Assembly (NCBI GenBank): GCA_002311645.1 | Contig: DBYW01000003.1 | Coordinates: forward strand, 166,567 to 230,566 | Source of the DNA: Bacteroidales bacterium UBA1176 | Lineage (GTDB): Bacteria > Bacteroidota > Bacteroidia > Bacteroidales > WCHB1-69 | DNA length: 64,000 bases | Direction of reading: 5' to 3' | Part shown: one piece after another, positions 14,229 through 39,568 of the stretch | Layout: each line of letters starts with the position of its first letter | Numbering within the stretch: the stretch's first letter is position 1 | Position numbers and translations under genes: made by a program | The notes under the pieces: generated by a model | The model's database searches: none | The model's input: the letters and a program-made list of their open reading frames with translations, nothing else | What the model was told of the DNA's origin: nothing

Positions 14229-14240
14229 CACTTGACCGCT

Positions 14241-16279: not shown

Positions 16280-16289
16280 CCCTGGAACG

Positions 16290-16327: not shown

Positions 16328-16350
16328 ATGCCATGAAAAAAGGGGAATTA

Positions 16351-16800: not shown

Positions 16801-16812
16801 TTAAAGAAGAAT

Positions 16813-16966
16813 CCAATGTCCAACATCTAATGACCAATATCCAACCACCAACAGCCAACATCCATATTTTCTACTAATGGTTGTTAGACGTTGGATGTCG
16901 GCTGTCGAAATTAATTTCTTAATTATCAACGCCAAACACCAACCACCAATAACCAATATCCAAGCA
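16813..16966. repeat. Heptad-periodic CCAAYNN arrays (8 units, an inverted block, 5 units)
   Basis: Units CCAATGT CCAACAT CTAATGA CCAATAT CCAACCA CCAACAG CCAACAT CCATATT at 16813-16868. Inverted units at 16879-16907. Five more units at 16932-16966. Confidence 0.75.
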
Positions 16967-17052
16967 TCACGGGTACTTTTCTGAAACACAGCCATATCCC
17001 TTGAATCCTTGTAAAAAAAAGGCATATTCCATCCGATATCGTATTTTTTTCC

Positions 17053-17060
17053 TATTTTTG
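17053..17060 (+). promoter_or_regulatory. -7 box TATTTTTG, candidate promoter of the giant-protein operon
   Basis: This is the only exact TAnnTTTG match I found between the repeats and the ATG at 17272. It implies a leader of about 200 nt. Confidence 0.4.
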
Positions 17061-17271
17061 CGCGACAAATAATGCGTATTTTTTCTGCATCCGCTCAGCC
17101 TGTCACTCCCAGATACAGCATCGCTCAAAAATCTCATTGACAGGACTTTATTTAAAAAAAAGAACATTTTGGCTCTGACCGGCCAAATTTGTTCAACAAT
17201 ATAATCGTCCCGATTATAACGGGACACTGTTGACTTGAATAATAACAAAAGTATAAAACATATTTCGGTTT

Positions 17272-20200
17272 ATGAAAAAACTATACTTCTTGACCTTTGC
17301 GCTTCTCCTTTTCTCCTCGGCTCTTCGGGGACAAACTGTTTTGTCGGAAAATTTCGAAGGCGGCACGGATGTGAGCTGGCTCCCTGCAGGGTGGTCCGTC
17401 ATCGATGCAAACAACGACAACCGAAATTGGCGGTTCCACACCTATTCGGGGTATGGTGCTCAAGTCCATTCCGGTAACGGATGCATGATCTCCGACTCCT
17501 GGTACAGCGGCCAGGGTGCCTGCACTCCGGACAACTGGCTGGTGACTCCGGCCGTAACCTTACCGGCCAACGCCGTGCTTTATTACTGGGTGGTGGCACA
17601 GAACCATTATTATACAGGCGAGAATTATGGCGTTTACATATCCACCAACGGGGGCAACACCCCCAACGACTTCGTCTCACTGTTTGAGGAGAGTTCTGTC
17701 CCGTCAACATACGAGCAGAGGGCCATCAGCCTGGCAGCATACGCAGGCCAGACTGTGCGCCTCGCTTTCAGGCATTACAATTGCTACGACGAATATTGGA
17801 TGAACATCGACGACGTGGTCATAACAAACGACCCATCGGCCGGCGGTGGCACAACGCCCATTGTGCCCGGTCCCGGCGACCAGTGTTCCTTGCAAATACA
17901 TTTGGAGAGAACCCTTGGCGCCTCTTCTGCCACATACAGTGTCTATTATATGGTGAATAACAACTATTCCAGCAGGACGCTGTTGGAGTTGGATCCGTCA
18001 ACCGCCTCGTTTGACACAACACTACTGCTGCCCCCCTCCACACTTTTCGAATTGTGGGGATGGGACGGCGGAAGCGACTTTCGCTGCCGGATTATCGACG
18101 GGTCGGGGAACGTCTTCGAAGACAGCTATTATCCGAATTATAGGACTCTTGATGCCTGCTCCGCGGCCTGCAACCTGTACGTAACCTACGGTGCCAACGA
18201 CACCCTGCGCAACATCAGCGACCCCAATTGGATAAAGGTCTACGCTGGGGACAACAGCTCCACCTGGTGGAATTTGTATAATTCGACTTGGACATCGGTC
18301 GGGCACACCTGGGGCGAATATATCCCCGTGTCGGCAGGCGTCCCGTTCCACTTTGTCTGGACTGAACCCGATGTGGTAAACCACTCCTCCTACTTTGTCA
18401 TACGCGACAATTCGACCAACCAGGAAATCTTTAGGAAAAACGCCGGCGAGGTGCTGCCCGACGGCGAGTTCCTCATCTATACACCGACCTGCGGCTCCTG
18501 CGCGGCTTCCGACAAATGTCCCTTGACCATACACCTGTCGAGAAACGCGAACGACCCCGACCATCCCGGCGACTATATCGTAGTCTATTTTGTGGGTGGC
18601 GACTATTCAAACCAACATGAATTACGTCTCGGGCCCTCGGAAAGCAGCCTGGATACCACGCTGATGCTGTGCCCGGATATCCCCTTCGAATTAAACACGA
18701 AATGGGAAAGTGGCGTTGGCGGCTATTGCGGTCCAGACTTTCAGGCGCGTTTCGTGAACGCTTACGGGAATATAACCAATTCCGGATACTATCCCTCCTA
18801 TTCCACCTCGAACCCCTGCGCCAGAACTTGCGACTACGCGGTCCGAATTGGAGCAGCGACCGCCTTGTCCGGTGTCAATAGCACTTGGATTGAAATTTAT
18901 GAGGGCAATGCCACTACTCCGTTCAAAACCATTGGACAGTCCAATTATACAAGCGGCACCTATTATTATCCTTTTTCCGTGACGGCGGGAAAACAGTACC
19001 GCTTTGTATGGCATGAACCGGACCAGGCCAACCATGCGACCTATTTCTACATTATGGACCAGGATGATGAGACGATATTTACGAAAAACCAATACACCAC
19101 GTTAGCAGACGGGGAGTTCTTCGTCGTCACCCCCACCTGCCAGGCCGTGCTGGTCACCACAGACCAGCCGACAAACATACAGACCTACTCGGCAAGATGC
19201 GGCGGCACCGTCCATACCGATGCCATTGACAACTACAACTCGAGTTATGGCATCGACTACGGCGTTTGCTATGGCACCACCCCCAACCCGACGGTGAACG
19301 GCACTCATACCACCACTCACTCCTACTCGGGAGGAACTTTCTCGTTCACCCATTATCTGTCGAATCTCCAAGACAACACCACCTATTATGTGCGGGCGTA
19401 TGTGTCGTACATGGGGAATGTGACCTACGGCGAACAAGTGCAGTTCACTACCCCGCAGGCCTATTTCTGCCAAACCCCATCCTCGGTGAACGGATACGGG
19501 CTCACGGGCAGCTCCGAGCTGATCACCTGGCAGGTCAACAACGTGACCATGCCCATCGGATCCTACACCTTGCAATACAAGAAGGCCACCGATTCGGACT
19601 GGTCTGCCGAAATCAGTGTCACCGACACGCAATACGTGCTCAACGGCTTGCTGGCCAACACCCAATACAACGTCCGTGTGCGCTCTGTATGCGCCTCGGA
19701 GAACAGCTCTTGGAAGACGGCCTCTTTCACCACACCGGTGGCGATGATGAATCATTTGTATGTGACCGTTACCGGCAGCGGCAACGGCAGCAGCTGGACA
19801 AACTCTATGGGCAGTTTCTCGGACGCTTTGAGACTGGCAGCGGAAATCCGGCGCATATATGACACCACGGTGACCATCTGGGTGGCCGCGGGCACCTACT
19901 ACGGTGACGTCGATTCTCTCCAGGCTTTCAAGATGTATGAGGGCGTGAACGTGTATGGCGGCTTCGCCGGCAATGAGCCAGACAATTACGACCTTTCATC
20001 ACGCGATTTTGATGCCAACGCCACCATTCTCGACGGCCAGAACAGCCACCGCGTGCTGTATCAGGACGGCTCCCCCACCCAAACTGTAGTCTGGGACGGT
20101 TTCACCATCCAGAATGGCGCTGCGAATTACACTTCCGGAAACACTTGGAGCAGGTTTGGAGGCGGCGCCATCTTGGCGCAGGCCTTTGAAATGCGCAACT

Positions 20201-23200
20201 GCCGCTTCCTGCACAATTATTCTTATTCTGACGGCGGAGCCGTGCTGTTGAGGCCGAACGTGTCCAATCCGGCATTCAAATTCCAAAATTGTGTATTCAG
20301 CTACAATAAGTCGGATGATGAGGGCGGTGCTGTGGCTTCCAACATTTATATGATGAATGTCAATCCGGATACGTTGGATTTGAATCTGATATTCGATCAT
20401 TGTGATTTTACGTACAACTCAGCGAATGAAAAAAGTGCGCTTGTGGACTTTTATGGTATACTTAAATTTTATAATTGTAAATTCAAATATAATTCGGCTG
20501 TGTCTCCAAGTAGTGGAGCTACTTATTCTGGTACTGTTGAGGGTGGCCGACTCTTTGTTAACTGTGAGATTAGTCACAATAAGGCTAATGAGTATGCGGG
20601 CCTTTCTAATTCTACGGCCTCTCTTTTGAACTGTATCATCGTGAATAATGAGGATGTGAATTCTTATCACGCATTTTCATCAGGTCTTTATAATTTCAGA
20701 GGTGTAATGACCAATTGTGTGGTATGGGGAAACAAGGTGGATGGAGTACCTGTTAATATTTATTCCACTATTTATGGATATGATGAAATGTTAATTCAGA
20801 ACTGCGCCATCGAGGGCGGCTTTGACTTTGACGGCAATCCCAATAACACTTTCATCACCCTGGAAAGCGAAAACTACGGAGATGCTGCGGGACGGAACTA
20901 TCCCTTCTTTGCCTGCCCCGAGAACGGCGACTACCGCTTGCGTGGACAGTCAGCCTTGGTGAATGCGGGTGTGAACAATCCAGACATGCCAGCGCAAGAC
21001 CTCGCAGGTGAAGCTCGTGTGTATGGCGGCACTGTTGACATCGGCTGTTTCGAATACCAGGGCGAGGACCTTTGCATCGCACCTATCACGATGGCAGCAC
21101 AGGATGTCTATGGCACTTCCGCCACCATCACCTGGCAGAACGCCAATCCCAATGAGCCCCTGTACTATGAGCTCTCGTACAAGCAGGAGAACGAAACCAC
21201 CTGGACCGTGTATCCCGGGCAGCTTCACACCACATGGGCCATGCTGAGCGGCTTGCAGCCGCAAACCAACTATGTGGTCCGTCTGCGTACTTTCTGCGAC
21301 GCCGGACACACCTCCGAATATTCCCCTGAACTGAACTTCACGACCTCTTGTGCCAATGGTTATATCCATACCACCCTCGTGAATGGAACAACTGATTACT
21401 ACTGGACATTTGGAGGCCTCCCCTTTGACGACGGCTATTCCTATTCACAGCAGATTTTCAGGGCGGACGAAATGGGCTCCGCAGGTACTATTGATACGAT
21501 ATATCTGCAACATGACCAGACCTCCCAGGCGGCTGTGCGCAATGTGGACATCTATATGGCGCATACCCTGAGAACCAACTTTGAGACAGGCGACGACTGG
21601 ATTCCATTCGAGCAACTCACTTTGGTGTATTCGGGAAATATCACCGTTGACTGCGCCGCCGACGGAACTTGGATTCCCGTTCCTTTGCAGGTCCCCTTCG
21701 ATTACAATGGGGAAAACAACCTAGCCTTGGTTTTTGATGACAACACGTATGACTGGATCAACTATTATGAGGGCTTCAGGAGTCATAAAACGACCGAAAA
21801 GACCAGCATGTCTGTGTCTCGGAGGATGTTGGACTTTGATTTCACGAATCTTCCCACCTCCTATAGCTTGGAGACAGAGTGTATGAACATTATTTTTGCG
21901 GGAAGTTGTGCCACCGGAGGCTGCGACAGGGCCAACCTCTCTGTGATGGATGTAACGCCGACCTCCGCCACTTTGGCCTTTACCCAAGGCGCGAATTCGA
22001 CAGCCAACGACTTGCAATACAGGAAAGTTGGCGATGAAACTTACATCGTGCTGCCAACCAGCAGCAGTCCATACACTTTACAGGGCCTGACACAGAACAC
22101 GGAATATGAGGTGCGCATGCGCTCCAGATGCGGATTTGAATACGGTGCCTGGAGAACCGTGCGGTTCCGCACCGGCTTGAAAAACTTGTCCAGATTGTAT
22201 GTCACCACGACAGGAAATGGCGACGGCTCCAGTTGGGCCAACGCGACCCACGACTTCCTGTGGGCATTGGAAACAGCCGAGATGATGAAGCAGACATTCG
22301 GCACGGCTCCCGACATCTGGGTGGCCGAGGGCACCTATTACGGCGACACCCTACACCGCGACGCATTCTTCATGAAGGAAGGCGTGAACGTGTATGGCGG
22401 TTTCGTCGGCAACGAACCCGACAATTACGACCTCTCCCAACGTGACTTTGCCCACCATGCCTCCATTTTGGATGGCAACAACCGACGTCGTGTGCTGAAC
22501 CAGAGAGAGAAGTTTGCAGAGCACACCACGTGGGACGGCTTCACCATCCAGCACGGTTATTTGGAGCAATATATAGGAAATGCCGCGGGCGCTTACCTCC
22601 GCGGAAGTGTAAGCCTCTACAATTGTGTGATAACCGACAACGATGGCAGCAATGGAGGCGTGGGTGGCCTGCAATGTATAGGAGATGAGCACAGCATATA
22701 CGTACATGGAGCATACCAAACGATATACGACAGCATCTTCATCCGCAATTGTGTGATAAGCCATAACACAAACGGCGGTGCGATTTTCGACCAGCATGTG
22801 CTGGCGGAAAACTGTGTGATTGAATACAACACTTCCGAATATGATGGTGGCGGTGTAACGCTAACGAATGGTGCGAAACTCAGGAACAGTATTGTACGGC
22901 ATAACACTGCACTCCGCGAATACTATTCTTATTATGAACTTTACCATGACGGTTACGGCGGCGGCGTTTACGCCGGGGGCCGAACAGTCGTCGAGAACTG
23001 TGAGATCACACACAATGTGGCTGCCAACGGCGGTGGTGTATGTGATGCCACGGGTGGTAATGATTCCTATAGGGATTACAAGTCCGGTATATTCAACTGC
23101 TTGATAGCCAACAATACAGCCTACAAAGGCGGCGGTGTGTATTGCAACATCGAATCTCGTGTTGTGGGTTCCACTATTGTCAATAACATGATTGAAAGCG

Positions 23201-26200
23201 AAGATGACGAGGATTTGGGCGCGGGCGTTATAGGTGACCATAACACGTTATTGCTCAATTGTATTATCTGGGGCAACAAGAGAAACGGCACCCCGGAAGG
23301 TTATGTGCACCAACAAAGGAATACTATTGTTTTCGAGGCCAACCACGTGGCTTCAGACGTGGCCATTGAAGGGGAACACAACATCCTGCTGTTGTCAGAC
23401 AGCTATGCCCATGGCATCTTCAGCCCACGCTTCGCCCATCCCGCCGAGACCGCGGGCGCCAATGATACCACCCGAAATGTCGACTGGCATTTGCTGCCAG
23501 GTTCCGCCTGCATCAACAAGGGCGACACCCTCGTGTTTGGCACCACCGACTTGGACGGTCTTGTACGCGTGCAGCAGGACACCGTTGACCTCGGTTGCTA
23601 CGAGACCCCGTACAACGGCGTGGTTCTGCCCTCTTTGCCCGACAGCATTGTCTATGTGAAGGAAGGCGGGGCCGGGACTGGAATGGGCGACAGCTGGGAG
23701 AACGCCACTGCCTCCCTCACAGACGCCCTCAATATCGCCAGTTTGAGCCGGGGCCAAGTATGGGTGGCCGCAGGCACCTATTATGGCGAAAACGCAAGTG
23801 CGGCGAATGCTTTCGAAATGAAAGCGGGAGTCAACGTGTATGGCGGCTTCGAGGGCAACGAGCCCCCGGCTTTCAACTTGGAGGAACGCGACCTTGAACA
23901 CAATGTCTCCATCCTGGATGGCCAACAGCAACAGCGTGTGCTGTACCAGGCCCAAGATTTCGTGGCGGAAGATTCCGTGGCATGGGACGGCTTCACGATC
24001 CAGAACGGACGGACCACAGGCAATGGCGCCGGAGTCTTTATGCGCCAATACAGCCGGCTGAAGAACTGTATTGTGCAGAACAATATGGTAGAAGGCTTTG
24101 GAGAGAAAAGAGGAAACGGCATTTATGTGTATAATACAAAAAATTATTCACAGGGTTATTTCCACGATAGTGGATATACAATAATAAGCCATTGCAAGAT
24201 CATCAACAATGGAGCAGAGATGACCTCCGCAACAGTATATGGTGGCGGACTCTATGCCTGGGTTGCGGAAATTGACCATACTGAGTTTGCACACAACGCT
24301 GCCTCGTATGGCGGTGGAGCATACCTGTACGAAAATGTGTCTTTGTCTAATTGCTTGATACATAACAATAAAGCATCTATGTATGGCGGCGGTGTGTATA
24401 TGGAGGATAATGATATGCAAATGGTAAGTTGTGATATTGTGAAAAACACAGTCGCACGCAGCAATGGCGGTGGTGGACTGTACAACAAGTATGAAAGATG
24501 GGGAACTTGGGGCGAGTGGGACACCTTGCTCATGAGGAACTGTATTGTCTGGGGCAACAGGTTTGAGGGTATGGACAACGATTGGCATTCCCCCACCTAT
24601 CAGGAGGAAGTGTCCATACCTGACAATATTGTGCAAGTCCGGGACATTAACACCAGCATGAAATATTGCGCAGTGGAAGGCGGCTACGTGGGCACCGGAA
24701 ACATGATGTTAGCCCCCGAAAACGACAAGTTCAACGGGGAGCAGTTCTATGTGCGTTTCATGAATCCCGATCAAGAGAACTTCCGCCTGCACCCCTTGTC
24801 CGCCTGTGTCAACAAGGGCAGCAACGGCTTTGTGGATGCCGCTTTCGATTTCTATGGCAACATACGTATCAACGACACACTTGTGGATATAGGCTGTGCG
24901 GAAGCGGGTGAGTTGGAGTGCCTGCCGGTGACCAGCGTGACCGTGACCGTGGACTGCGATTCCGTGCAGCTGATGTGGAACCGCGTGTTCATGGAAAACC
25001 AATGGCAGCTGTCGTATGGCGAAGTGGGTGCGGATCCTACTGTCATTCTCTTGAATGACACTGTTTATACAATATATGATTTGCCTAAAGGAAGGAACTA
25101 TACCGCGTTCGTGCGCTCAATCTGCAGCGCGGACAAGCAAAGCGAGCCCTCTTCCTCCGCAAACTTCCGCACGCCTTTGTGCCTGCCGGAGGCCTGTACG
25201 CCGGTACCGGGCATAACGGCCGATGTGCAGTGCGACTCGGTCATATTGACATGGAACCGGGGCGGAAACGAGGCGCAGTGGCTCTTGTCGTATGGCGAGT
25301 CGAATGCCGCACCTGTTGAATTGTTGGTGAACGACACGGTATATACTTTAAAGAATCTGACATACGACCACAGCTATACGGCATACGTGTTTGCAATCTG
25401 CGACGACACCGTCAGGAGCGACACCTCCGTGTGGGTGAATTTCGTGGCTCAGACTTGCAATGTATCCGTATGCCCCGCCGTGACTGGCTTGACCGCTGAT
25501 GTAACCTGTGATTCGGTGAAATTGAGATGGAACCACAACAATGATGCAGACCATTGGGTGGTATCGTGGGGTCAGGCCGGTGAAGAACATGTGTTGGATA
25601 CTGTAGAAAACAATGTATACGTATTAAGGAACCTGCCCTTGGATCAGCTGTATACAGTTTCAGTGTTTGCCTTGTGCAATGGCAACACTTTGGCTGGTGA
25701 AACCTCGCCCTTAGTGACCTTCAGAACCCAATGCCTGCAACCGGCACTGTTGCCGGACTTGCACGTGACAGAAGTACACTACTCCAATCCGGTGATCGGG
25801 CAAACCATGAGGGTGCAATGGACCGTGAAAAATGACGGGGATGGCGACACGCCTCCCGGCACCACATGGCCGGATTATATCTGGTTGGTGCGTGATGCCG
25901 ATGTCAGATTACATGATCCTAACGACATGAATTTGGCACAAGTGACGAATTTACAGGCTCTACAGTCTGGAGAATCATACACCAACACTGCGGATGTGGT
26001 AATACCCAACGATCTCGAACCCGGAAACTATTATCTTTTTGTTTTTGCCGACCAAACGGACGCTTACGCTATTGATTTCACTCCTGCTGGAAATGGTAAT
26101 TTGGCTCCCAACCCCTACACGCCCAGCGTGACAGGTAACCCCTATCCCTATCTGAAAGGCCTTTCGCACCAAACTGGTTGGAACGCAAATCTTCCTGGAG

Positions 26201-29787: not shown

Positions 29788-29801
29788 AAATAAAACACAA
29801 T

Positions 29802-31007
29802 ATGAAACCTGTTAAATCATTATTTGTAACCGCATTTATACTCTCGGCCTGCCTTTCGCTTCATGCGCAGTCCAACGCACATTTTGCCGGAGAGGATAAG
29901 AAGGTTGTGCATCTGAATGACAATTCGCAGCAAGTGGAAATCGGCCTGCCGGATTCCGACCCGACCCACTGCTATGAATGGTCCGGACCCAATATTCTGA
30001 CGGATCCCCACCAGCCTGTCATCACAGTGAATCCGCCGGATCCGACGAATGTCTACACCGTTGTCCGGCATTCCACCTGCGGCCCGGAGACCGACGAGGT
30101 GGTGGTCTCCTCGGTTGACACTATCAGCCTCGTCAGTGTGACCCCGCTTAGAGAATGTTACAACGATGGCGATTCCGTACATTTGTCGGATTTTGACATC
30201 GTGACCGACCCGCCCGGATATGGCTCGTTGGTTACAGTGTCACCCCAAGTTGTTTACAATGTCTTGTGGACCGATCTTTTGCCAGAAAAACCGATAGAGC
30301 TAACATTCAGCTTGCGCTATGGCGGTCACACATCCACCAAGAAAGCGACGGTGGATGTGTATAATGAGGGCTTTACTGTGTCGGCAGGATCAAGTGTCCA
30401 TCTCCGCAATATACAAAAAGCCTTGGAAAATTTGGCAAAGCTGGTGGAGAAAGGCAAAGACATAACCAAAGTTCTCAGCAAGAATAAAGCTTCCCCATGT
30501 ACTCCCGGATTCGATGCCGCATTGAATTTGCCAAGTGTGAGATTCTTCAGGGCCTGCTGTAATGGAAACGCCGTGCAGGGTTTTACTCTGTCTGGTATAT
30601 CATTCGCACCCACTATTTCTATGGATTGCTATTTCCCATTGCCTGGCTGTAGCGTTCGTGGATTAGGGGGGTTTAATGTACATTTTGGACTCGCGGCAGG
30701 TGCGACTGTGGGGCCTATCTCCTATACCTATAAAGGGGATTGCTCGAATTTGACAGCAGCACTCATTGGCGCTTTTGTTCAGGTTTCGGGAGGTGTCGAG
30801 TTCGAATTTCTCGACAGGGACATCCTTTCAGCACAACTTGATCTTGTGGGAACAGGGTCCACCAGTGTCAACTGGACTGTTGGGGAAGGTATAAACTGGG
30901 GGGGACTGACAGTAGACCTTTCAGTAGCCGGCAGCGTGACCTTCTTGAGTCTGTTTACGAAAAGTGTAAGCGCTCCACTTGGCCAACACGTATTTTTTAA
31001 AGACTAA
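29802..31007 (+). CDS. Secreted protein of unknown family, 401 aa
   Basis: Signal peptide MKPVKSLFVTAFILSACLSLHAQ. Starts 14 nt after the giant gene. The N-terminus has one Ig-like unit resembling those in the 2267-aa protein. The C-terminal half is Gly/Val/Ser-rich. Confidence 0.7.
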   Translation: MKPVKSLFVTAFILSACLSLHAQSNAHFAGEDKKVVHLNDNSQQVEIGLPDSDPTHCYEWSGPNILTDPHQPVITVNPPDPTNVYTVVRHSTCGPETDEVVVSSVDTISLVSVTPLRECYNDGDSVHLSDFDIVTDPPGYGSLVTVSPQVVYNVLWTDLLPEKPIELTFSLRYGGHTSTKKATVDVYNEGFTVSAGSSVHLRNIQKALENLAKLVEKGKDITKVLSKNKASPCTPGFDAALNLPSVRFFRACCNGNAVQGFTLSGISFAPTISMDCYFPLPGCSVRGLGGFNVHFGLAAGATVGPISYTYKGDCSNLTAALIGAFVQVSGGVEFEFLDRDILSAQLDLVGTGSTSVNWTVGEGINWGGLTVDLSVAGSVTFLSLFTKSVSAPLGQHVFFKD

Positions 31008-31013
31008 AGTTGT

Positions 31014-32441
31014 TTGAAGATGAAAAAAATATATACATTTTTTGCTTTTGCAGTTTGCACCTTGTCTTTTATGTGTGCGCAAGCCCAGAATTGTCGTTTC
31101 CCGGCATATACCACTGGCCATTACGTCCTGTCCATGAATTTGGAGTTGGACAGTAATAGCGTGTATATGCCCGATAGCAGCCATCGTGTCTGCGGGCTTG
31201 TTTTCTCCTACGAATTGAATGGCATGATGCCTTCGGAAGATGATAGCCGTATCATATCCATTACGGGCGGCACCCAAAACCCTTCGGGCTCGAACACTCC
31301 GCCTGCCCTCCTGTGCCGTCTGTTACAGGCATACCGGAGCAATTCCTTGGAGAACATCAAACAACAGTACCGGCCGGCAGACAGAACCACGTTCGACGTG
31401 GTCCTGTCGCAACCCGCTTTGGCCAGCCGGTATCTTGCAGCGATCTCACTCGTGGAGGAAATGAAGCTGACACTGACCTACGAGACAGACGACTACACCA
31501 TAGCCTTGGTGACCTGCTATAACCACGACACCGTGATGGCCATCACTCCGTTCTGTCTGCAACAGGTTGGTGGCCAATGGTTCGCTGCCATAGTCAATGA
31601 CAGCAGCACCACTGCAACGATAGTCAACATTTTGGCTTTCTTCGAGAATTTTGGAGTCAATGACTTTATCCCTGCCGAGGACATCGTGGATGTTGACAAC
31701 GACGGTGTTCCCAACACCTCTGACAACTGTCCTTGCAAATACAATCCTGACCAGAATGACAGGGATGGCGATGGCCTCGGGGATGTGTGCGACAACTGCC
31801 CCGAAAAGGCGAATCCCGACCAGAAAGACAGCGATCTCGACGGCATCGGCGATGTGTGCGACAACTGCCCCTTCCGATATAACCCTGACCAATACGACGG
31901 TGATGGTGACGGGGTTGGAGACAGCTGCGACAATTGCAAGAACCATCCCAACCCGAACCAGTTAGACTTAGACTTGGACGGCATAGGCGACGATTGTGAC
32001 GATGATATTGACGGGGATGACATCCTCAATGAGAACGAGACGGATGGGGACATGGATGCCGACGGCATACCGGACAGCATGGACAACTGTCCCATGAACT
32101 ATAACCCCGACCAGTTGGACAGCGACGGCGACGGCATCGGCGACGTGTGCGACAACTGCCCCGCAATTGCCAACCCGGGCCAGGAGGACGCGGACAACGA
32201 CGGTTTTGGAGACGTTTGCGACCCCGACCGTGACGGCGACGGCATTCCGAATACGAACGACAACTGCCCCGACAATTCCAACGAAGACCAACTCGACATA
32301 GACTGCGACGGTGTGGGCGATGTGTGCGACCCCGACCTTGACGGCGACGGCGTGCCCAACGAAAGCGACAACTGTCCCAACACCTTTAACCCCGACCAGC
32401 AAGACGCCAACCATAACGGCATTGGCGATGTTTGTGAATAA
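31014..32441 (+). CDS. Secreted thrombospondin type-3 repeat (Ca-binding) protein, 475 aa
   Basis: Signal peptide, a unique domain of about 210 aa, then about a dozen DxDxDGxGDxCDNCP..NPDQ.D units. Confidence 0.85.
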   Translation: MKMKKIYTFFAFAVCTLSFMCAQAQNCRFPAYTTGHYVLSMNLELDSNSVYMPDSSHRVCGLVFSYELNGMMPSEDDSRIISITGGTQNPSGSNTPPALLCRLLQAYRSNSLENIKQQYRPADRTTFDVVLSQPALASRYLAAISLVEEMKLTLTYETDDYTIALVTCYNHDTVMAITPFCLQQVGGQWFAAIVNDSSTTATIVNILAFFENFGVNDFIPAEDIVDVDNDGVPNTSDNCPCKYNPDQNDRDGDGLGDVCDNCPEKANPDQKDSDLDGIGDVCDNCPFRYNPDQYDGDGDGVGDSCDNCKNHPNPNQLDLDLDGIGDDCDDDIDGDDILNENETDGDMDADGIPDSMDNCPMNYNPDQLDSDGDGIGDVCDNCPAIANPGQEDADNDGFGDVCDPDRDGDGIPNTNDNCPDNSNEDQLDIDCDGVGDVCDPDLDGDGVPNESDNCPNTFNPDQQDANHNGIGDVCE

Positions 32442-32459
32442 AAACAGAAAGGAACGTTT

Positions 32460-35400
32460 ATGAAAAAACATAGCTCCATTTTCTTCAAAACAACAGCACT
32501 TGCTGTTTTGTTGACCATCCTGACAGGCGGCGCGTTTGCGCAGGCCCCTGGCGAGGGCACCCATAATGTGACCGTGGCCACGGGCTGCGGCAGCTATACC
32601 TGGAGTGCCAATGGCGTAAGCTATCAGGCCAGCGGTATATACACCTACGCCTACGAGAACACCTCGGGCGAGGCCAGTGTCGACACCTTGAAACTGACCA
32701 TTTATCCTGTGCCGAATGTAAAGATAAAGGGCAATGACACCGTCTGTTTTGGCGTGATTTCAGGATTGAAAGCCACCGGTGCAACCACCTACTGGTGGTG
32801 GCATACCGCTGACAATATGGCGGCAACCATCAACACTGTGCCCCGGGATTCCATCACGGTCACACTTACAGAAATAGACACCTTTATTGTGGTGGGAACC
32901 AACAGTTATGGCTGTCAGGCAACGGACACCTTGCCAGTATTGGTGCTGCCTTTGCCGAGTGTGGTTGCACATGCCCATACTTCCAGAATCTGCAAAGGGC
33001 AAAGTGTGGTGCTCACCGCCGAGGGAGCAAGCGCGTACAGCTGGAGTCCCGGAGGACTTTTAGGTCAACCCGTCGAGGTCAGTCCCAAGAGGACCACCAC
33101 CTATTGGGTTACGGGTGTCGATGACTTTGGCTGCCGCGCCAAGGCCTCTATCACGGTTGAGGTCGAAGCTGTGAAAATCATGGCTTCCCCCTCGCTGACG
33201 GTTTGTGAAGGGGAGAGCGTCACCCTGACCGCTTCGGGAGCGTTTTCGTATAGCTGGAACTACGGGGTACCCGGTGCCACCACCCCATCCATAGAGGTGG
33301 TTGAGTCCGGTGTCTATATCGTTACCGGACACCACAATGGTTGTAACACTTCGGACACTGCTATTGTCACAGTCCATCCGAAACCAAATGTCACAATCAG
33401 CGGAAACGATGTGGTTTGCCCGGATGAAAGTTCCACGCTTACAGCGTCAGGAGCGGATGAATACTCATGGAGCAACGGACAGACCACGGCAAGCATAGAA
33501 GTGAATGCGGCCGGTGTCTACACTGTTACGGGCACAGACAGCCACGGATGCTCTGTCACCGTCCCCAAATTGTTGACGAATGGCACACATCCGATAATCA
33601 ACGTTACCGGTGCAGGCGAAGTTTGCAGCGGATCGACCCTGCTTTTAAGTGCGGAAAATGTGAGCACCTGTGTGTGGAAAGACACTTTGGGGAATATTTT
33701 AGGCAACACGCCACAACTCCAGGTCGCGCCGACTGAAAACATGTTGTATAAAGTCTATGGAGAAGTGAACGGGAACAACTGTTCAGGTATGGGTGTAAAG
33801 TATATAAGAGTTTACCCCTTACCCGAAATCAGTATCATATCGGATTCTCTCGTGTGTGAGGGAGGTGAAGTGGTACTTGCAGCCTCGTCGCATTATCCGG
33901 GGACAATCTCATACATTTGGCCCGGATACGGAAATGGCTCTTCCATTACGGTAACACAGAACGAATCCCAAAAAACATACACATTGGTAGGAGTAACCGG
34001 ACATGATTGCCGTGCATCCGTGTCGAAAACCATCAGAACCCGCATGGGTGTGGGACAGAGAGAAAGGATCAGTGTCTGTGGTGAGAACCGCAGCTGGCAT
34101 GGACAGGTCTACTTCACTTCCGGCACCTATATTTCTTCGTATGCAACATTCGACGAACACAATTGCCCATGCTATGACACCCTGGACCTGATACTGAACT
34201 ATAACACAGGTCAAACGGAAAGATGGTCCGAAAGTGAATATTACTACTGGGACAAAACCGGCCAGACCTACTATTATAGCGGAACTTATACCACCGATGA
34301 ATACCCCAACAGCAATGGATGCATGACAGCGGACACCTTGCACCTGACCATCATCAATGAAGATGTGTTCCAAAACGACTGTATGATCTATGGCTTTATG
34401 GTAAAGGAGGAGTCTTGTGACCCAGGGCATGACGGGATTATCAAGTTAAGTGTCGACGAAGATGCAGCGTCCGATTTTGACATCGAATGGAATTTAGGCA
34501 ATGGACAGACATCCTCAAGTTTGGTGGTGAACGGCGTTCGGAAAGGCTCATATCCCGTAAAGGTCAAGTCTCTCACTTGTCCCGATGTGATCTATTATGA
34601 GGATGTGATCGAGGTCACGAGAGAAGATGGCTGCCGTGATGATGATGACGACGACGACGATGGAGGGTCTGGCCCAACCGTATCTATTAGTGGCCCGACC
34701 TCGGTAACTGCCAGTTGTGAGGACCTTCCGTCGTGCACCTATACTGTCGTTGTTTCGGGAGGTACGCCTCCTTACAGTACGCCTCCCGTTTATACCTTTA
34801 CTTGTACTCCAAGCGGACATACCCGACTCTCACGTAGCGTCACGGATTCCAAAGGCCGAACAGGACACGGATACTTGGATGTATATGGGAAAAAAGAGGA
34901 TTGTCCCCATGACCCGAATCTGATCACGGGTCCGGAAGGCTACACGGAGGAGAAACGTTTTGTGAATGCCACGGACAAGATGGAATATCGGATTGATTTC
35001 GAGAACGATCCTAATTTTGCCACGGCGCCGGCCACCCGTGTAAAAATCACCTACGATGTGCCGGCGGAGCAGAACTTGGGGTCCTTCCGCTTGGGCGAAT
35101 TCGGCTTCGGCAGCTTCATCTATTCCGTGCCTTCCAATGTAAATTCCTACTACCAGCGTATCGATGTGTCCGACTCATTGGGCGTTTGGGTGGATGTGAC
35201 CGCCGGCTTGGACATCATGAACCACCAGCTGTTCTGGATTTTCCAGAGCATTGACCCGGCCACGGGTGCCGAACCGGTAAGCTCACAAATAGGCTTCCTC
35301 CCCATCAATGATTCCCTGAGCCATGGTGAAGGCTATGTCACCTACTACATTTCGCCTAACAGTACCGTGGCGACAGGAGACACAGTGGCAGCCCAGGCAA

Positions 35401-38400
35401 CTATTGTTTTCGATGACAACGAATCTATTGAAACCAATGTGTATGTCAACACCTTTGATGCGGTTGCACCCACCTCCACCCTCATCGCCGATATAAACGA
35501 GCAGGATTCCTTGTACTGCACCTTCACCTTCGACGCACAGGATGACGCCAACGGCTCAGGCGTGAAGGAGGTCGAGGTGCTCGTGTCCAAGAACAACGGT
35601 CCCTACCGCTCCATGGGCACCTCCACTCCTGACAGCAGCGTGACATTCGCCCTCGAAAGCGGCATGCACTACCAGTTCATGTCCATTGCCACGGACAATG
35701 TGAACAACAAGGAGGCTTCCAAGATCCAGCCCGACACTGTCATCAACTACAACACCGCCCCCATCGAACTCATGCTGAGTGGCAACACTTTCTATGAATA
35801 TGACCCGAAGAACACCCTCGTCGGCACCTTGTCCACCGTGGACGATGACATGAGCCAACCCTTCGTCTATACCTTAGTGAGCGGCGTAGGCGATGATGAC
35901 AACGCCCTCTTCACGATAGAAGGCAACATGCTCAAAACCGACACAACGTTTGTATGCAGCCGGGATTTGGACTATTATGTACGCGTGAGAACCACGGATT
36001 TCGGCGGCCTCTACTGCGAGAGGAGCTTCAGACTGAAGGAGATCCGCCAACACGTCACCCCAACCGTCACGGTGCCCAAAGCGATATGCGAGGGTGAGAG
36101 CATCGATTTCTATGGAACCGTGCTCTCAACGGCAGGTTCCTACTCCAAGACCCTGCAGACCCCCGAAGGCTGCGACAGTATTGTTGTCTGGGTCCTGACG
36201 GTGAACCCGATCTATAATGTAACACGCGACACCATCGTCTGCAACAAGTTCGTCTGGAACGACAGCTCCTATATGGTCAGCGACACCATCAGCCACACCT
36301 ACATCCTGGCCACCGGCTGCGACAGCACTGTGACCTACAACCTGACGGTGAATCACAGCTCAGCAGGCATTGACACGCAAATCGCCTGCGACAGCCTCAC
36401 CTGGATAGATGGCATAACGTATTATGCCAGCACGAACACCCCAACCTTCACGCTGACGAACGCCGTCGGCTGCGACTCTTTGGTCACCCTGAACCTCACA
36501 GTGAACTACAGCACAGAAAGCTTTGACAAGTTAGTCGCCTGCGACAGTCTCACCTGGATAGACGGCATAACCTATACCGAAAGCACATCCACCCCGACCT
36601 TCACACTGACGAACGCCGCCGGCTGTGACTCTGTGGTCACCCTAATGCTGACAGTACTCCACAGCACGCACAACTCGTTCGACACGGTTGTCTGCGAAAG
36701 CTACACATGGAATGGTGTCACCTATACCCAAACGGGCACCTACACCCACGAGTACACCAACGGTGATGGCTGCGCCAGTGCCGACACCCTGCACCTGACG
36801 GTATACCATGGCACGCACGATGTCCTTGACATAGTTGCATGCGACAGTTATGCTTGGCATGGTGTCACCTACACCCACGAGTACACCAACAGCAACGGTT
36901 GCGCAAGCGCCGACACCCTGCACCTCACGGTCCACCATGGCACGCACAACTCCTTCGAAACGGTTGTCTGCGAAAGCTATGTTTGGCATGGTGTCACCTA
37001 CACCCACGAGTACACCAACAGCGAAGGCTGTGTGAGCGTCGACACCCTGCACCTGACAGTACATTATGGCACACACAATGTATTTGACACAGTTGTCTGC
37101 GAAAGCTACGTGTGGCATGGCGTCACCTACACCCAAACGGGCACTTACACCTACACATACGACAATGCCAGTGCCAACGGCTGCGCCAGCATCGACACGC
37201 TGCACCTGACAGTACTCCACGGCACGCACAACTCCTTCGAAACGGTGGCCTGCGAAAGCTATGTGTGGAACGGTGTCACCTACACCCAAACCGGCACCTA
37301 CACCCACGAGTACACCAATAGCGAAGGCTGCGCGAGCGTCGACACGCTGCATCTGACAGTACACTACGGCACGCACAACTCGTTCGAAACGGTGGCCTGC
37401 GACAGTTATGCTTGGAATGGCGTCACCTACACCCAAACCGGCACCTACATCCACGAGTACACCAACAGCGACGGTTGTGCGAGCGCCGACACGCTGCACC
37501 TGACGGTACATTATGGCACACACAACTCGTTTGAGACGGTTGCCTGCGAAAGCTATGTGTGGAACGGTGTCACCTACACCCAAACCGGCACCTACACTCA
37601 CGAGTACACCAACAGCGACGGCTGCGCGAGCGTCGACACGCTGCACTTGACAGTACATTACGGCACGCACAATGTCCTCGACACCGTTGTTTGCGAAAGC
37701 TACGTGTGGAATGGCGTCACCTACACCCAAACCGGCACTTACACTCATGAGTACACCAACAACGACGGCTGCTCCAGTGCCGACACGCTGCATTTGACGG
37801 TATACCATGGCACGCACAACTCGTTCGAAACGGTCGTCTGCGAAAGCTATGTTTGGAATGGCGTCACCTACACCCAAACGGGCACCTACACCCACGAGTA
37901 CACCAACAACGACGGTTGCGCGAGCGTTGACACGCTGCACCTGACGGTACATTACGGCACACACAATGTCCTCGACACGATTGTTTGCGAAAGCTACGTG
38001 TGGAATGGTGTCACCTACACCCAAACCGGCACTTACACCCATGAGTACACCAACGGCGACGGCTGCGGCAGTGCCGACACGCTGCACTTGACAGTATACC
38101 ACGGCACGCACAACTCGTTCGAAACGGTTGCATGCGACAGCTACGTGTGGAATGGTGTCACCTACACCCAAACGGGCACCTACACCCACGAGTACACCAA
38201 CAGCGACGGCTGCTCCAGTGCCGACACGCTGCACCTGACGGTACTCCACGGCACAAATAATTCGTTTGAGGCTGTTGCTTGCGAAAGTTATGCATGGAAT
38301 TACGTGACCTACACCGAATCCGGCACCTACACGTATAGTTATACCAACGCAAATGGTTGTGTCTGTGTCGACACCTTGCATTTGACGATATACTATGGCA

Positions 38401-39263
38401 GCCACGATGCGACAACCGTCTCCGACTGCGAGTCTTACGTGTGGCACGGCTCCACCTACACCGAATCCGGCACCTATACGGATAATTACACCACTGCAAA
38501 TGGATGCGCCAGTTCCGACACGCTGTACCTGACCATCAACCACGGCACGCACAACTCATTCGACACGGTCGTCTGCGGAAGCTATGTATGGAATAACGTG
38601 ACCTACACCACATCAGGCTCACATACATACAATTACACCAACGCAAATGGATGTGCCTCTGTCGACACCTTGCACCTGACCGTCTATCATACCACCACAA
38701 GCATCGACGTGCAGGAAGCTTGCGACAGCTACGCATGGATTGACGGCTCAGTCTACACCGAAAGCGTCACAACCCCGTCCATCACGCTGACCAGTGCCGC
38801 CGGCTGCGACTCGATTGTGACACTGCACCTGACCATCTATGAGTCAACCTCTTCTGAATTCTCCATTGTCACCCATGACTCTTGCTACAACTGGAACGGT
38901 ATCGACTACTGTCAGTCTGGCGATTACGTGCAGACTTTGCAGACCGAGGACGGCTGCGACTCTGTTGTAACCCTGCATCTGACCATTGAAACTGGAATTG
39001 ACGACCACCAGATGAGAGCGTCCATGAATGTGTATCCGAATCCTACCAACGACAACGTCACTGTACAATTGATAACAAACAACAACCAATTTGAAGATGT
39101 GGACATTCAATTGTACGACATGTACGGCAAATGGTTGGGGACTTGGAAGATGACGGGAGAAACGACCGAAATCGACCTTTCGACTTACGCTGCCGGCATC
39201 TATTTCATCAAGGCTGTTGACGGGCAACGTATGATCGATGTCCGCAAAGTCGTGAAAGAGTAA
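32460..39263 (+). CDS. T9SS-sorted giant surface protein, 2267 aa (Ig-like units, poly-Asp, cadherin-like domain, about 20 Cys-repeats, type-A CTD)
   Basis: Signal peptide. The cadherin-like segment reads NTAPIELMLSGNTF..VGTLSTVDDD..YTLVSGVGDDDNALFTIEGNML. The C-terminal sorting domain reads NVYPNPTNDNVTVQ...AAGIYFIKAVDGQRMIDVRKVVKE. Confidence 0.9.
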   Translation: MKKHSSIFFKTTALAVLLTILTGGAFAQAPGEGTHNVTVATGCGSYTWSANGVSYQASGIYTYAYENTSGEASVDTLKLTIYPVPNVKIKGNDTVCFGVISGLKATGATTYWWWHTADNMAATINTVPRDSITVTLTEIDTFIVVGTNSYGCQATDTLPVLVLPLPSVVAHAHTSRICKGQSVVLTAEGASAYSWSPGGLLGQPVEVSPKRTTTYWVTGVDDFGCRAKASITVEVEAVKIMASPSLTVCEGESVTLTASGAFSYSWNYGVPGATTPSIEVVESGVYIVTGHHNGCNTSDTAIVTVHPKPNVTISGNDVVCPDESSTLTASGADEYSWSNGQTTASIEVNAAGVYTVTGTDSHGCSVTVPKLLTNGTHPIINVTGAGEVCSGSTLLLSAENVSTCVWKDTLGNILGNTPQLQVAPTENMLYKVYGEVNGNNCSGMGVKYIRVYPLPEISIISDSLVCEGGEVVLAASSHYPGTISYIWPGYGNGSSITVTQNESQKTYTLVGVTGHDCRASVSKTIRTRMGVGQRERISVCGENRSWHGQVYFTSGTYISSYATFDEHNCPCYDTLDLILNYNTGQTERWSESEYYYWDKTGQTYYYSGTYTTDEYPNSNGCMTADTLHLTIINEDVFQNDCMIYGFMVKEESCDPGHDGIIKLSVDEDAASDFDIEWNLGNGQTSSSLVVNGVRKGSYPVKVKSLTCPDVIYYEDVIEVTREDGCRDDDDDDDDGGSGPTVSISGPTSVTASCEDLPSCTYTVVVSGGTPPYSTPPVYTFTCTPSGHTRLSRSVTDSKGRTGHGYLDVYGKKEDCPHDPNLITGPEGYTEEKRFVNATDKMEYRIDFENDPNFATAPATRVKITYDVPAEQNLGSFRLGEFGFGSFIYSVPSNVNSYYQRIDVSDSLGVWVDVTAGLDIMNHQLFWIFQSIDPATGAEPVSSQIGFLPINDSLSHGEGYVTYYISPNSTVATGDTVAAQATIVFDDNESIETNVYVNTFDAVAPTSTLIADINEQDSLYCTFTFDAQDDANGSGVKEVEVLVSKNNGPYRSMGTSTPDSSVTFALESGMHYQFMSIATDNVNNKEASKIQPDTVINYNTAPIELMLSGNTFYEYDPKNTLVGTLSTVDDDMSQPFVYTLVSGVGDDDNALFTIEGNMLKTDTTFVCSRDLDYYVRVRTTDFGGLYCERSFRLKEIRQHVTPTVTVPKAICEGESIDFYGTVLSTAGSYSKTLQTPEGCDSIVVWVLTVNPIYNVTRDTIVCNKFVWNDSSYMVSDTISHTYILATGCDSTVTYNLTVNHSSAGIDTQIACDSLTWIDGITYYASTNTPTFTLTNAVGCDSLVTLNLTVNYSTESFDKLVACDSLTWIDGITYTESTSTPTFTLTNAAGCDSVVTLMLTVLHSTHNSFDTVVCESYTWNGVTYTQTGTYTHEYTNGDGCASADTLHLTVYHGTHDVLDIVACDSYAWHGVTYTHEYTNSNGCASADTLHLTVHHGTHNSFETVVCESYVWHGVTYTHEYTNSEGCVSVDTLHLTVHYGTHNVFDTVVCESYVWHGVTYTQTGTYTYTYDNASANGCASIDTLHLTVLHGTHNSFETVACESYVWNGVTYTQTGTYTHEYTNSEGCASVDTLHLTVHYGTHNSFETVACDSYAWNGVTYTQTGTYIHEYTNSDGCASADTLHLTVHYGTHNSFETVACESYVWNGVTYTQTGTYTHEYTNSDGCASVDTLHLTVHYGTHNVLDTVVCESYVWNGVTYTQTGTYTHEYTNNDGCSSADTLHLTVYHGTHNSFETVVCESYVWNGVTYTQTGTYTHEYTNNDGCASVDTLHLTVHYGTHNVLDTIVCESYVWNGVTYTQTGTYTHEYTNGDGCGSADTLHLTVYHGTHNSFETVACDSYVWNGVTYTQTGTYTHEYTNSDGCSSADTLHLTVLHGTNNSFEAVACESYAWNYVTYTESGTYTYSYTNANGCVCVDTLHLTIYYGSHDATTVSDCESYVWHGSTYTESGTYTDNYTTANGCASSDTLYLTINHGTHNSFDTVVCGSYVWNNVTYTTSGSHTYNYTNANGCASVDTLHLTVYHTTTSIDVQEACDSYAWIDGSVYTESVTTPSITLTSAAGCDSIVTLHLTIYESTSSEFSIVTHDSCYNWNGIDYCQSGDYVQTLQTEDGCDSVVTLHLTIETGIDDHQMRASMNVYPNPTNDNVTVQLITNNNQFEDVDIQLYDMYGKWLGTWKMTGETTEIDLSTYAAGIYFIKAVDGQRMIDVRKVVKE
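36087..38990 (+). repeat. In-frame tandem coding repeats (126/144-bp units, about 20 copies; high-identity core 36693-38279)
   Basis: Repeated unit: C(E/D)SY(V/A)W(N/H)GVTYTQTGTYTHEYTN.DGC.S.DTLHLTV.(Y/H)GTHN.F.TV. Confidence 0.9.
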
Positions 39264-39287
39264 GGGAAGCGGATTTATGAGTTTTGC

Positions 39288-39322
39288 AAGAGGGCGCGCC
39301 AAATTGGCGCGCCCTCTTTTTT
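39288..39322 (+). terminator. Strong rho-independent terminator closing the giant operon
   Basis: Perfect 13-bp stem AAGAGGGCGCGCC/GGCGCGCCCTCTT with loop AAATT, followed by a T-run. Confidence 0.8.
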
Positions 39323-39353: not shown

Positions 39354-39374
39354 GTTTTGGATATTGGATATTGG
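39354..39374. repeat. Three heptad units (CCAATAT CCAATAT CCAAAAC) in minus orientation
   Basis: Plus strand reads GTTTTGGATATTGGATATTGG. This is the same 11-mer CCAATATCCAA found at 16834 and 16953, but inverted. Confidence 0.7.
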
Positions 39375-39544
39375 CCATTTGCCGTTAGCATTATTTATAT
39401 GACATTCTAACACGCAAGCATCTTCGTCACGCTGGTGTACTGTGTATTTTCCACGATTTCTCTGTTTGCACAGCCGTGTCACGGGTATAATAAACGATAG
39501 GACATGGGTGCCGAATAGGAATTGCGGGAATAGGAAAAATATTG

Positions 39545-39552
39545 TATCTTTG
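39545..39552 (+). promoter_or_regulatory. -7 box TATCTTTG for bamD
   Basis: TAnnTTTG match 17 nt before the ATG at 39569. It argues against the upstream ATG at 39542. Confidence 0.5.
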
Positions 39553-39568
39553 CACGTTTATAACCATC

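Follow-up and report, generated by a model that had tools for sequence, protein, structure and literature searches.

The block described here occupies positions 17053-39322 of a 64,000-nucleotide (nt) stretch of DNA from Bacteroidales bacterium UBA1176 (GCA_002311645.1, contig DBYW01000003.1, positions 166,567-230,566 of the forward strand); this whole stretch is referred to below as the window. The block contains four genes, here called gene 1 to gene 4, and the four open reading frames (ORFs) of 4171, 401, 475 and 2267 codons listed by the initial annotation, with gaps of 14, 6 and 18 nt, are present as described, all on the + strand. We find that the block is one copy of a widespread, unannotated four-gene cassette of gut and rumen Bacteroidales, which also occurs on metagenome contigs from other anaerobic environments. 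The ORF of gene 3, as listed, starts at a TTG (475 amino acids, aa; 31014-32441). Its translation opens 'LKMKKIY...' and the ATG two codons downstream, at 31020 ('MKKIY...'), is therefore the likelier start, which would give a protein of 473 aa and a gap of 12 nt. Each of the four N-termini reads by eye as a predicted Sec-type signal peptide for signal peptidase I, ending in A or G and followed by Q (...ALRG↓Q, ...LHA↓Q, ...AQA↓Q and ...AFA↓Q), in agreement with the signal peptides first assigned to these products. Cleavage between A or G and Q is typical for signal peptidase I substrates of Bacteroidota.

The cassette emerges when the family of gene 2 is followed into other genomes. Close homologues of gene 2 form 27 clusters among 5.8 billion proteins (381-418 aa, none with a Pfam domain), and a profile search of 1.84 billion representatives of 50%-identity clusters gave 289 matches at E ≤ 1e-3 and 190 at E ≤ 1e-10, nearly all of them 380-450 aa long and full-length. 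Wherever a cluster carries a readable source name (six close clusters and one distant), that name is 'hypothetical protein'. Genomic context was read at 19 loci with gene 2 homologues, ranging in identity from 57% down to about 20% and derived from metagenomes (rumen, gut and other anaerobic habitats) and from Bacteroidales metagenome-assembled genomes (MAGs). At all 19 loci gene 2 is preceded, at a distance of 6-75 nt, by a large ORF on the same strand, with CARDB domains wherever Pfam data exist. The gene that follows codes for a protein with thrombospondin type 3 (TSP3) repeats (TSP_3; 314-513 aa) at 17 of the 17 loci where it is visible and intact; at one locus (L015) the TSP3 gene is reduced to an uncalled ORF of 247 codons. 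The fourth gene is large at all 16 loci where it can be seen, and positive for DUF7619 wherever it is annotated. The co-occurrence of the families of genes 2 and 3 with giant CARDB genes elsewhere, which had been suggested as a check on the block, thus holds without exception in the 19 loci. A profile search of genome contigs (subset alignment) gave six loci, all in Bacteroidales MAGs and mostly from ruminants. The neighbours of the cassette differ between lineages.

Within the cassette, conservation is confined to four cores: the last ~400 aa of gene 1, the whole of gene 2, an N-domain of ~200 aa in gene 3 and a core of ~500 aa in gene 4, whereas passengers and stalks vary. Mean identities are 44% for the gene 1 C-terminal module, 47% for the gene 4 core, 31% for gene 2 and 33% for the gene 3 N-domain. 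Across eight divergent loci the pairwise identities of the four cores co-vary (r = 0.70-0.91), as expected if the parts are inherited and used together. The contrast between conserved cores and free passengers leads us to define the object as a four-part 'base' that carries lineage-specific passengers and stalks. Neither Pfam nor NCBIfam has a model for gene 2, for the gene 1 C-terminal module or for the gene 3 N-domain, and a literature search found no paper that joins CARDB, TSP3 and the T9SS (type IX secretion system) in a way that describes this cassette; the earlier remark that no system with this gene set has been described therefore agrees with our searches. One MAG, Bacteroidales bacterium Tb.RUG.402, carries two paralogous cassettes (L004 and L007), with gene 2 proteins 55% and 43% identical to that of the window, and a cell with two cassettes may display more than one such fibre. 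In two lineages, large peptidase genes whose products bear a T9SS C-terminal domain (CTD) lie directly 3' of the cassette on the same strand (C25, gingipain-like, and C10 with an Inhibitor_I69 propeptide; L002 20152-21185 and L012/L014 20065-21194).

The product of gene 1 is fibrillar-adhesin-like. Its signal peptide is followed by a Cleaved_Adhesin/choice-of-anchor J domain (aa 22-184), several fn3 domains, choice-of-anchor Q (beta-helix) segments and a CARDB array, and beyond the last CARDB lie ~400 aa without further Pfam match. It is this C-terminal module that defines the cassette: it aligns end to end, with no large gaps, at 30-72% identity in eight divergent loci, and the N-terminal parts of the same proteins are unrelated in length. 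The shortest homologue has 855 aa (L017) and the longest more than 8239 (L020), with the last ~400 aa aligning in all, so that giant size, by which the block was first described, is not borne out as a defining trait. From sequence patterns judged by eye, the module reads as the last CARDB, a PPC-like sandwich, an IPT/TIG-like domain and a terminal CARDB-like sandwich; the IPT/TIG-like part contains the only invariant Cys ('NFCEGE'), 123 residues from the C-terminus. A word-indexed search with the module gave 21 fragments, all from the same type of cassette and none from outside it, and a PDB sequence search returned no relative. At a distant cassette (L017/L018, 5050-15428) two CARDB proteins stand in place of the giant, one of 766 aa, with a weak Cohesin match, and one of 855-865 aa; at L017 the 766-aa protein comes first.

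Importantly for what follows, the whole gene 1 protein has no CTD of type A (TIGR04183), type B (TIGR04131/CHU_C) or type C (NF033708) at E ≤ 0.01, and the last 160 aa of seven divergent homologues have none even at E ≤ 10 (NCBIfam). A cryptic type-A CTD was also sought by aligning gene 1 with the type-A CTDs of the cassette itself, and was rejected at an hhalign probability of 0.1%. A match to 'UpsA pilin' at the C-terminus of gene 1 was seen in one member only, at 20 bits against a cut-off of 130, and was disregarded. That a surface-type protein lacks all three CTD types points to an undescribed partner in its export or anchoring.

Gene 2, the small protein next to it, has no match in Pfam at E ≤ 1 or in NCBIfam at E ≤ 0.01. 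When 64 diverse members of the family were searched against Pfam at E ≤ 1, PKD-type matches to the N-domain were the only ones that recurred among the 25 most-matched of 40 families, and the family profile matched the PKD domains of KIAA0319L (E 5e-8). The initial annotation, which recognised no family in gene 2, is thus right as regards Pfam and NCBIfam families, but the first domain can be called PKD-like by family profile. An AlphaFold2 model built on the family alignment (mean predicted local distance difference test score, pLDDT, 83) shows a signal helix, two immunoglobulin (Ig)-like sandwiches, a helix of 28 residues and an antiparallel meander of eight strands. In the sequence these correspond to the signal peptide, a PKD-like Ig domain and a second Ig-like domain (aa ~30-190 together), an amphipathic helix (199-226) with a heptad-like hydrophobic stripe and a C-terminal beta-meander (233-398). 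Six of the eight strands are modelled with 14-24 residues, joined by short turns; modelled alone, aa 190-401 reach a pLDDT of 82. Conservation within the family is highest at a twin cysteine, C252-C253: across the 64 members C252 is invariant, and C253, C314 and C119 are each present in at least 90%.

In gene 3 the TSP3 assignment is strong (PF02412, E 9e-55, seven Pfam stretches, nine DxDxDG motifs and 30% D/E in the repeat half), although the earlier description of the protein as almost entirely TSP3 repeats was overstated: the array covers only aa ~226-473 and is preceded by a separate conserved N-domain of ~200 aa. Homologues keep this N-domain and vary in the number of repeats. TSP_3 is the only domain detected in the protein (Pfam, NCBIfam), which ends in TSP3 repeats and has no OmpA_C. 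A word-indexed search with the N-domain gave two matches, both from the same type of cassette, and a PDB sequence search was empty. Judging from the TSP3 motifs only, gene 3, and the fibre as a whole, would depend on Ca2+.

Gene 4 has the features of a type-A T9SS cargo, namely a Sec signal peptide read by eye and a CTD at the extreme C-terminus (PF18962, E 3.8e-13, aa 2191-2260; TIGR04183, E 5e-13, aa 2191-2266 of 2267). The earlier statement that only the last gene has a T9SS sorting domain therefore holds, gene 1 having none even at the permissive threshold given above. In distant homologues of gene 4 the type-A CTD is matched at the extreme C-terminus at four of five loci, one of these four (L021) scoring 20.9 bits, below the cut-off of 23. 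Between signal peptide and CTD lie Ig_7-type Ig repeats, the conserved core and a stalk of 49-aa Cys-containing repeats. The core is 40-71% identical across eight divergent loci; it contains SprB-like Ig domains, the invariant motif 'C-x-x-D-P-N-x-I-x-G-P-x-G-Y', DUF7619 and domains that are FN3-like and cadherin-like in sequence pattern only, and a PDB sequence search with it was empty. DUF7619 (PF24595) scores 51-54 bits against a cut-off of 27, in a match limited to profile positions 85-132 of 133. Together with DUF11/CLIPPER, this domain has been placed among the stalk domains of the intramolecular-isopeptide type in fibrillar adhesins, with a Lys-Asp-Asn triad (PMC12617251). In gene 4 the N-terminal part of DUF7619 is too divergent for the isopeptide Lys to be placed, and a tentative Lys in 'DKMEY' is not conserved across loci. 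Everything between core and CTD varies among loci. In the window this region holds a repeat '...CESYVWNGVTYTQTGTYTHEYTNSDGCASVDTLHLTV...', which matches no Pfam family and whose copies are 77-84% identical in DNA (Tandem Repeats Finder); the array looks like a recently expanded stalk unit that would be prone to changes in length. The gene 4 homologue of L017/L018 has a Dockerin_1 match besides DUF7619 and the type-A CTD; this may be a cross-match to a Ca-binding loop.

Table 1. Features of the four-gene block and its upstream flank, in window coordinates
Feature	Position	Strand	Remarks
tRNA-Met(CAT)	16206-16281		upstream flank
Candidate Bacteroidota -7 promoter box, TATTTTTG	17053-17060	+	TAnnTTTG; 211 nt 5' of the gene 1 ATG
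Gene 1	17272-29787	+	4171 aa; fibrillar-adhesin-like
Gene 1, CARDB-rich stalk	25759-28584	+	about aa 2830-3771; Pfam CARDB, five stretches, E 4e-41
Gene 1, C-terminal module	28585-29784	+	last ~400 aa; cassette-defining; end-to-end alignment across loci
Gene 2	29802-31007	+	401 aa; unannotated family
Gene 2, twin cysteine C252-C253 ('CCNG')	30555-30560	+	most conserved feature of the family
Gene 3	31020-32441	+	473 aa from the ATG; signal peptide, conserved N-domain, TSP3 array
Gene 3, conserved N-domain	31086-31694	+	~200 aa, directly after the signal peptide
Gene 3, acidic TSP3 repeat array	31695-32438	+	predicted Ca2+-binding; aa ~226-473
Gene 4	32460-39263	+	2267 aa; T9SS type-A cargo
Gene 4, conserved core	34347-36329	+	about aa 630-1290; from homologue alignment
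Gene 4, tandem array	36334-38609	+	Cys-containing stalk; ~11 or more copies of a 147-nt (49-aa) repeat and 153-nt relatives
Gene 4, T9SS type-A CTD	39030-39257	+	aa 2191-2266
Intrinsic terminator closing the block	39288-39322	+	14-bp G+C-rich stem, then U6; -28.7 kcal/mol; z = -6.0 against shuffles

The ORFs, the gaps, the upstream box and the terminator (Table 1) fit a single transcription unit, and the four genes are probably co-transcribed, judging only by how close together they lie and by there being one box upstream and one strong terminator; promoters may also lie within the coding sequence. The terminator hairpin with its T-run is as first reported, except that its stem measures 14 bp and not 13. 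As for the -7 box noted ahead of the block, it is present, and TATTTTTG is the sole match to TAnnTTTG on the + strand between the tRNA and gene 1; the motif is nevertheless common, with 36 matches in the window against 24.7 ± 4.9 expected from shuffles and eight additional + strand matches in the interior of the block. Because TAnnTTTG is this frequent, the box alone is no proof of a promoter, and we list it as a candidate only. A scan for sigma-70-type promoters and for terminators was uninformative for this Bacteroidota genome.

We lean towards the view that the cassette specifies a multi-subunit, T9SS-linked, Ca2+-stabilised fibrillar surface adhesin. What can be read directly is the co-occurrence and order of the four families, the division into conserved and variable parts, the presence or absence of CTDs and the domain content; from these we infer the formation of a physical complex, its location at the surface and the role of each small protein. 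The initial annotation had likewise taken the block for a joint adhesin or fibre module in which the two small proteins may be partners, a view that gains support from the conserved gene set in the 19 loci. In such an assembly all four products would reach the periplasm through Sec and be processed by signal peptidase I. Gene 4, by means of its type-A CTD, would then cross the outer membrane through the T9SS and be fixed at the surface. Gene 1 would be the variable, very long 'business' subunit, with an N-terminal adhesive head on a CARDB stalk, and its C-terminal module of ~400 aa would act as a docking or export handle recognised by the small proteins of the cassette. Gene 2 would be a dedicated carrier or outer-membrane anchor, in a role like that of the PorP/SprF-like shuttles for type-B cargo; gene 3 would be a Ca2+-binding tether or spacer, in the position that a PorE-like protein has in Flavobacterium operons; and the conserved core of gene 4 would be the fourth member of the complex. 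We link the cassette to the T9SS because of the type-A CTD on gene 4 and of the CTD-bearing C25 and C10 peptidase genes that adjoin it in relatives.

The model for these roles is the handling of type-B substrates. Type-B T9SS substrates each have a dedicated PorP/SprF-like carrier, often genetically linked, to which they stay bound for surface anchorage (PMC12635249, PMC12618676, PMC9143113). In each of five F. johnsoniae operons a type-B substrate is encoded with an SprF-like shuttle and a PorE homologue, the three being believed to assemble into a complex anchored at the wall (PMC12618676). The closest described systems are such operons of F. johnsoniae, for example Fjoh_3952/3951/3950, and, in P. 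gingivalis, a proposed PG1035-PorP-PorE complex (PMC12618676, PMC9143113, PMC12635249). As in the F. johnsoniae type-B operons, a gene for a large surface protein is followed by one for a partner of ~400 aa and then by a third gene, which in the known system codes for the envelope tether; as there, the cargo ends in a partner-specific module and the hosts are T9SS-bearing Bacteroidota. Gene 2 lies directly next to the cargo gene at 19 of 19 loci, as carriers of the PorP/SprF kind often do, a resemblance of layout and not of membership. A conserved Cys pair of SprF forms a disulfide link to GldK (PMC12635249). The conserved cysteines of the partner provide a further likeness, by analogy only, since the pair is CxC in SprF and CC in gene 2; the twin cysteine of gene 2 and the Cys in 'NFCEGE' of gene 1 could be candidates for an intermolecular disulfide of the SprF-GldK kind.

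Unlike the substrates of the type-B operons, gene 1 has no type-B CTD, nor one of type A or C. Unlike PorP/SprF, gene 2 lacks the signature of that family and has the architecture PKD-Ig-helix-eight-strand meander; PorP/SprF (PF11751/TIGR03519) was considered for gene 2 and rejected, with no match in Pfam at E ≤ 1 or in NCBIfam at E ≤ 0.01 and none among the 25 most-matched families of the 64 members. Unlike PorE-like proteins, gene 3 carries TSP3 repeats and lacks OmpA_C, TPR and WD40 domains. Unlike the type-B operons, the cassette has an obligatory fourth gene, for a protein with a type-A CTD. By sequence the cassette does not belong with the type-B operons; it may therefore work like a substrate, shuttle and tether operon but is not said to be one. 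A likeness also exists to the sprCDBF gliding-adhesin operon of F. johnsoniae, with four same-strand genes, a giant repetitive adhesin with small accessory proteins and T9SS dependence (predicted for the cassette); unlike sprCDBF, however, the cassette shares no homologous component beyond generic Ig/SprB-like repeats, and its hosts are gut and rumen Bacteroidales represented by MAGs. Through DUF7619 in gene 4, and through the stalk repeats with a terminal functional domain in genes 1 and 4, the cassette resembles the isopeptide-stalk fibrillar adhesins (DUF11/CLIPPER, DUF7507 and DUF7619; PMC12617251), which as described are single polypeptides, whereas here the fixed gene set comprises two stalked proteins along with two small partners. 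Multi-gene operons for T9SS-tied giant adhesins of Bacteroidota are already familiar; new are the parts and their fixed combination.

Several observations weigh against the assembly that we favour. Pfam, NCBIfam and PDB profile searches with gene 2 found only the PKD-like N-domain and no sequence similarity to PorP/SprF or to any outer-membrane barrel family. Foldseek with the whole gene 2 model gave only tandem Ig and cadherin matches with template modelling (TM) scores below 0.2, and with the C-domain gave no significant match in the PDB (best E 0.1, TM ≤ 0.42). The hydrophobic stripe of the helix suggests, in the model, a soluble half-barrel as readily as a membrane domain; the C-domain may be inserted in the outer membrane, possibly as an oligomer, or be a soluble half-barrel around the helix. 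Gene 3 is missing OmpA_C, the domain that defines the proteins whose position it would take. The core of gene 4 is distant from the CTD and may therefore sit far out from the cell and not at a basal anchor. Finally, all homologues come from MAGs or metagenome contigs.

A further-reaching reading is that genes 1 and 2 constitute a new cargo-carrier class for crossing, or for anchoring at, the outer membrane of Bacteroidota, a proposal that we make only tentatively and hold to be doubtful. One possibility is that the C-terminal module of gene 1 is a fourth T9SS sorting module, read by gene 2, with its nearly invariant Cys-Cys and unrelated to PorP; the other is a T9SS-independent export pore built from the long-stranded beta domain of gene 2. 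In either case, a two-stalk fibre of megadalton scale would have both the TSP3 protein and the type-A CTD protein as obligatory structural partners.

We regard it as unlikely that gene 2 is, by itself, a self-contained outer-membrane translocator or pore, whether oligomeric or a closed barrel, with gene 1 leaving the cell independently of the T9SS and gene 4 using the T9SS separately. Such a protein would account for the absence of any known CTD from gene 1, and a CTD-less giant beside a small beta-rich partner recalls type V secretion (autotransporter, two-partner), as does the order of parts in the gene 2 model, where a signal peptide, an Ig 'passenger', a helix of ~28 residues and a C-terminal beta domain follow one another as in an autotransporter. 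The strands are Gly-rich and amphipathic, about 20 residues long, with one hydrophobic face and one face rich in Ser, Thr, Gly and Asn. Moreover, the non-significant Foldseek list for the C-domain is headed by the OmpA transmembrane domain (probability 0.84-0.87, TM 0.37-0.42, E ≥ 0.1) and consists mostly of membrane beta structures (Ail, OpcA, FapF, NalP, TonB-dependent barrels and MACPF/gasdermin pore hairpins). None of these matches, however, is significant; unlike in type V secretion, the beta domain has only about eight strands, too few to enclose the helix or a passing polypeptide unless it oligomerises; and the C-terminus, which ends ...FFKD, ...FFN or similar, has no classical terminal aromatic beta-signal. 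Neither gene 1 nor gene 2 matches an Autotransporter, ShlB/POTRA or TPS domain in Pfam or NCBIfam, the fold matches to NalP and FapF being non-significant. Gene 4 keeps its type-A CTD in almost all lineages, which argues that the cassette depends on the T9SS.

That dependence could also take the form of hitch-hiking, in which genes 1 to 3 assemble on the gene 4 core in the periplasm and cross the T9SS, together or serially, on the CTD of gene 4, with genes 2 and 3 serving as adaptors or chaperones and not as anchors in the membrane. The presence of the CTD on gene 4 only, the discreteness of the conserved gene 4 region, which lies far from the CTD, and the co-evolution of the four cores all speak for it. 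We nonetheless find it quite unlikely, given a combined size of more than 7000 residues; to our knowledge there is no precedent for the co-translocation of a protein of more than 4000 aa through SprA/Sov.

Alternatively, genes 2 and 3 may be periplasmic folding or holding chaperones, or components of an extracellular matrix, and the four proteins merely co-regulated adhesins that form no defined complex. All the domains are indeed generic adhesin or Ig modules, and a helix on a beta-sheet, as in gene 2, is compatible with a soluble fold. Such a loose set appears improbable, as order and presence are strictly kept in 19 of 19 loci, down to about 20-25% identity, and cassette-specific cores contrast with freely varying passengers. 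Loose co-regulation would not keep the C-terminal module of gene 1 so well, at a mean of 44% against 31% for gene 2.

Outside the four genes, the surroundings are as the initial annotation gave them: the block lies between tRNA(CAU) and bamD-rpoZ-coaBC-DUF4835-recN, as confirmed by the position of the tRNA and by Pfam matches of the downstream genes to YfiO/BamD, Rpb6 (RpoZ), Flavoprotein and DFP (CoaBC), DUF4835 and SMC_N (RecN). The spacer between the tRNA and gene 1 (990 nt, 16282-17271) is rich in repeats. A search for known RNA elements gave only a sub-threshold match on the - strand to the Flavo-1 RNA (RF01705, 16494-16641; 37.7 bits, E 4e-6, with a gathering score of 42). Also present are four hairpins, perfect or nearly so (16403-16499, 16435-16460, 16516-16612 and 16730-16770), and degenerate CCAA-rich repeats of 38 nt (16813-16969, upstream of gene 1). 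An 11-mer from these repeats, CCAATATCCAA, recurs inverted and in tandem (TTGGATATTGGATATTGG) at 39357-39374, just past the terminator, so that the block is bracketed by short inverted repeats; this sharing is near chance. The picture of an insert wedged in at the tRNA did not hold up: a horizontally acquired island inserted at tRNA-Met would suit the adjoining tRNA, the repeat-rich spacer, the recurrence of CCAATATCCAA and the differing neighbours of the cassette in other lineages, but it is very improbable, since integrase and transposase are absent (no ORF in 16282-39540 encodes an integrase), the tRNA 3' end is not repeated directly and no tRNA 14-mer recurs in the window, G+C does not shift (0.49-0.56 in the block against 0.51-0.57 in the flanks) and ~0.6 shared 10-mers are expected by chance between such spacers.

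Further features of the flanks may be recorded here. The maximal ORF of bamD (39542-40507) begins with a TTG at 39542 and has a -7 box, TATCTTTG (39545-39552), within it; translation more probably starts at the in-frame ATG at 39569. A secreted-type protein of 1336 aa with a C-terminal FISUMP (Fib_succ_major) domain is encoded at 48360-52370 of the window, and FISUMP proteins adjoin the cassette also in L017 and L019. On the other side, window positions 11187-16145 encode a TPR protein of 1013 aa with a partial resemblance to PorW/SprE that stays below threshold (96.8 bits; cut-off 250) and, directly upstream of tRNA-Met, a protein of 637 aa without a family.

Cargo signals of three types (A, B and C) and carriers of two kinds (PorV and PorP/SprF-like) are currently recognised in T9SS biology. 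The cassette adds surface-type proteins that can be very large (more than 8000 aa at most), that lack signals of type A, B or C and that are nevertheless always encoded with the same three partners. It recurs across many lineages, all of its carriers being uncultured, and bears on how CTD-less giant proteins reach the surface of Bacteroidota. Should genes 1 and 2 prove to be a new cargo-carrier class or export route, this would be categorically new. If the proposed assembly is correct, it would represent a new way to export or anchor giant adhesins in abundant gut and rumen Bacteroidales, and it would give names to four modules now called 'hypothetical', namely the gene 1 C-terminal module, gene 2, the gene 3 N-domain and the gene 4 core. 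It would also offer a compact handle, a tail of ~400 aa and three genes, with which very large passengers could be displayed on Bacteroidota. In the organisms themselves, the cassette may bear on the attachment of uncultured rumen Bacteroidales to plant fibre or to other cells.

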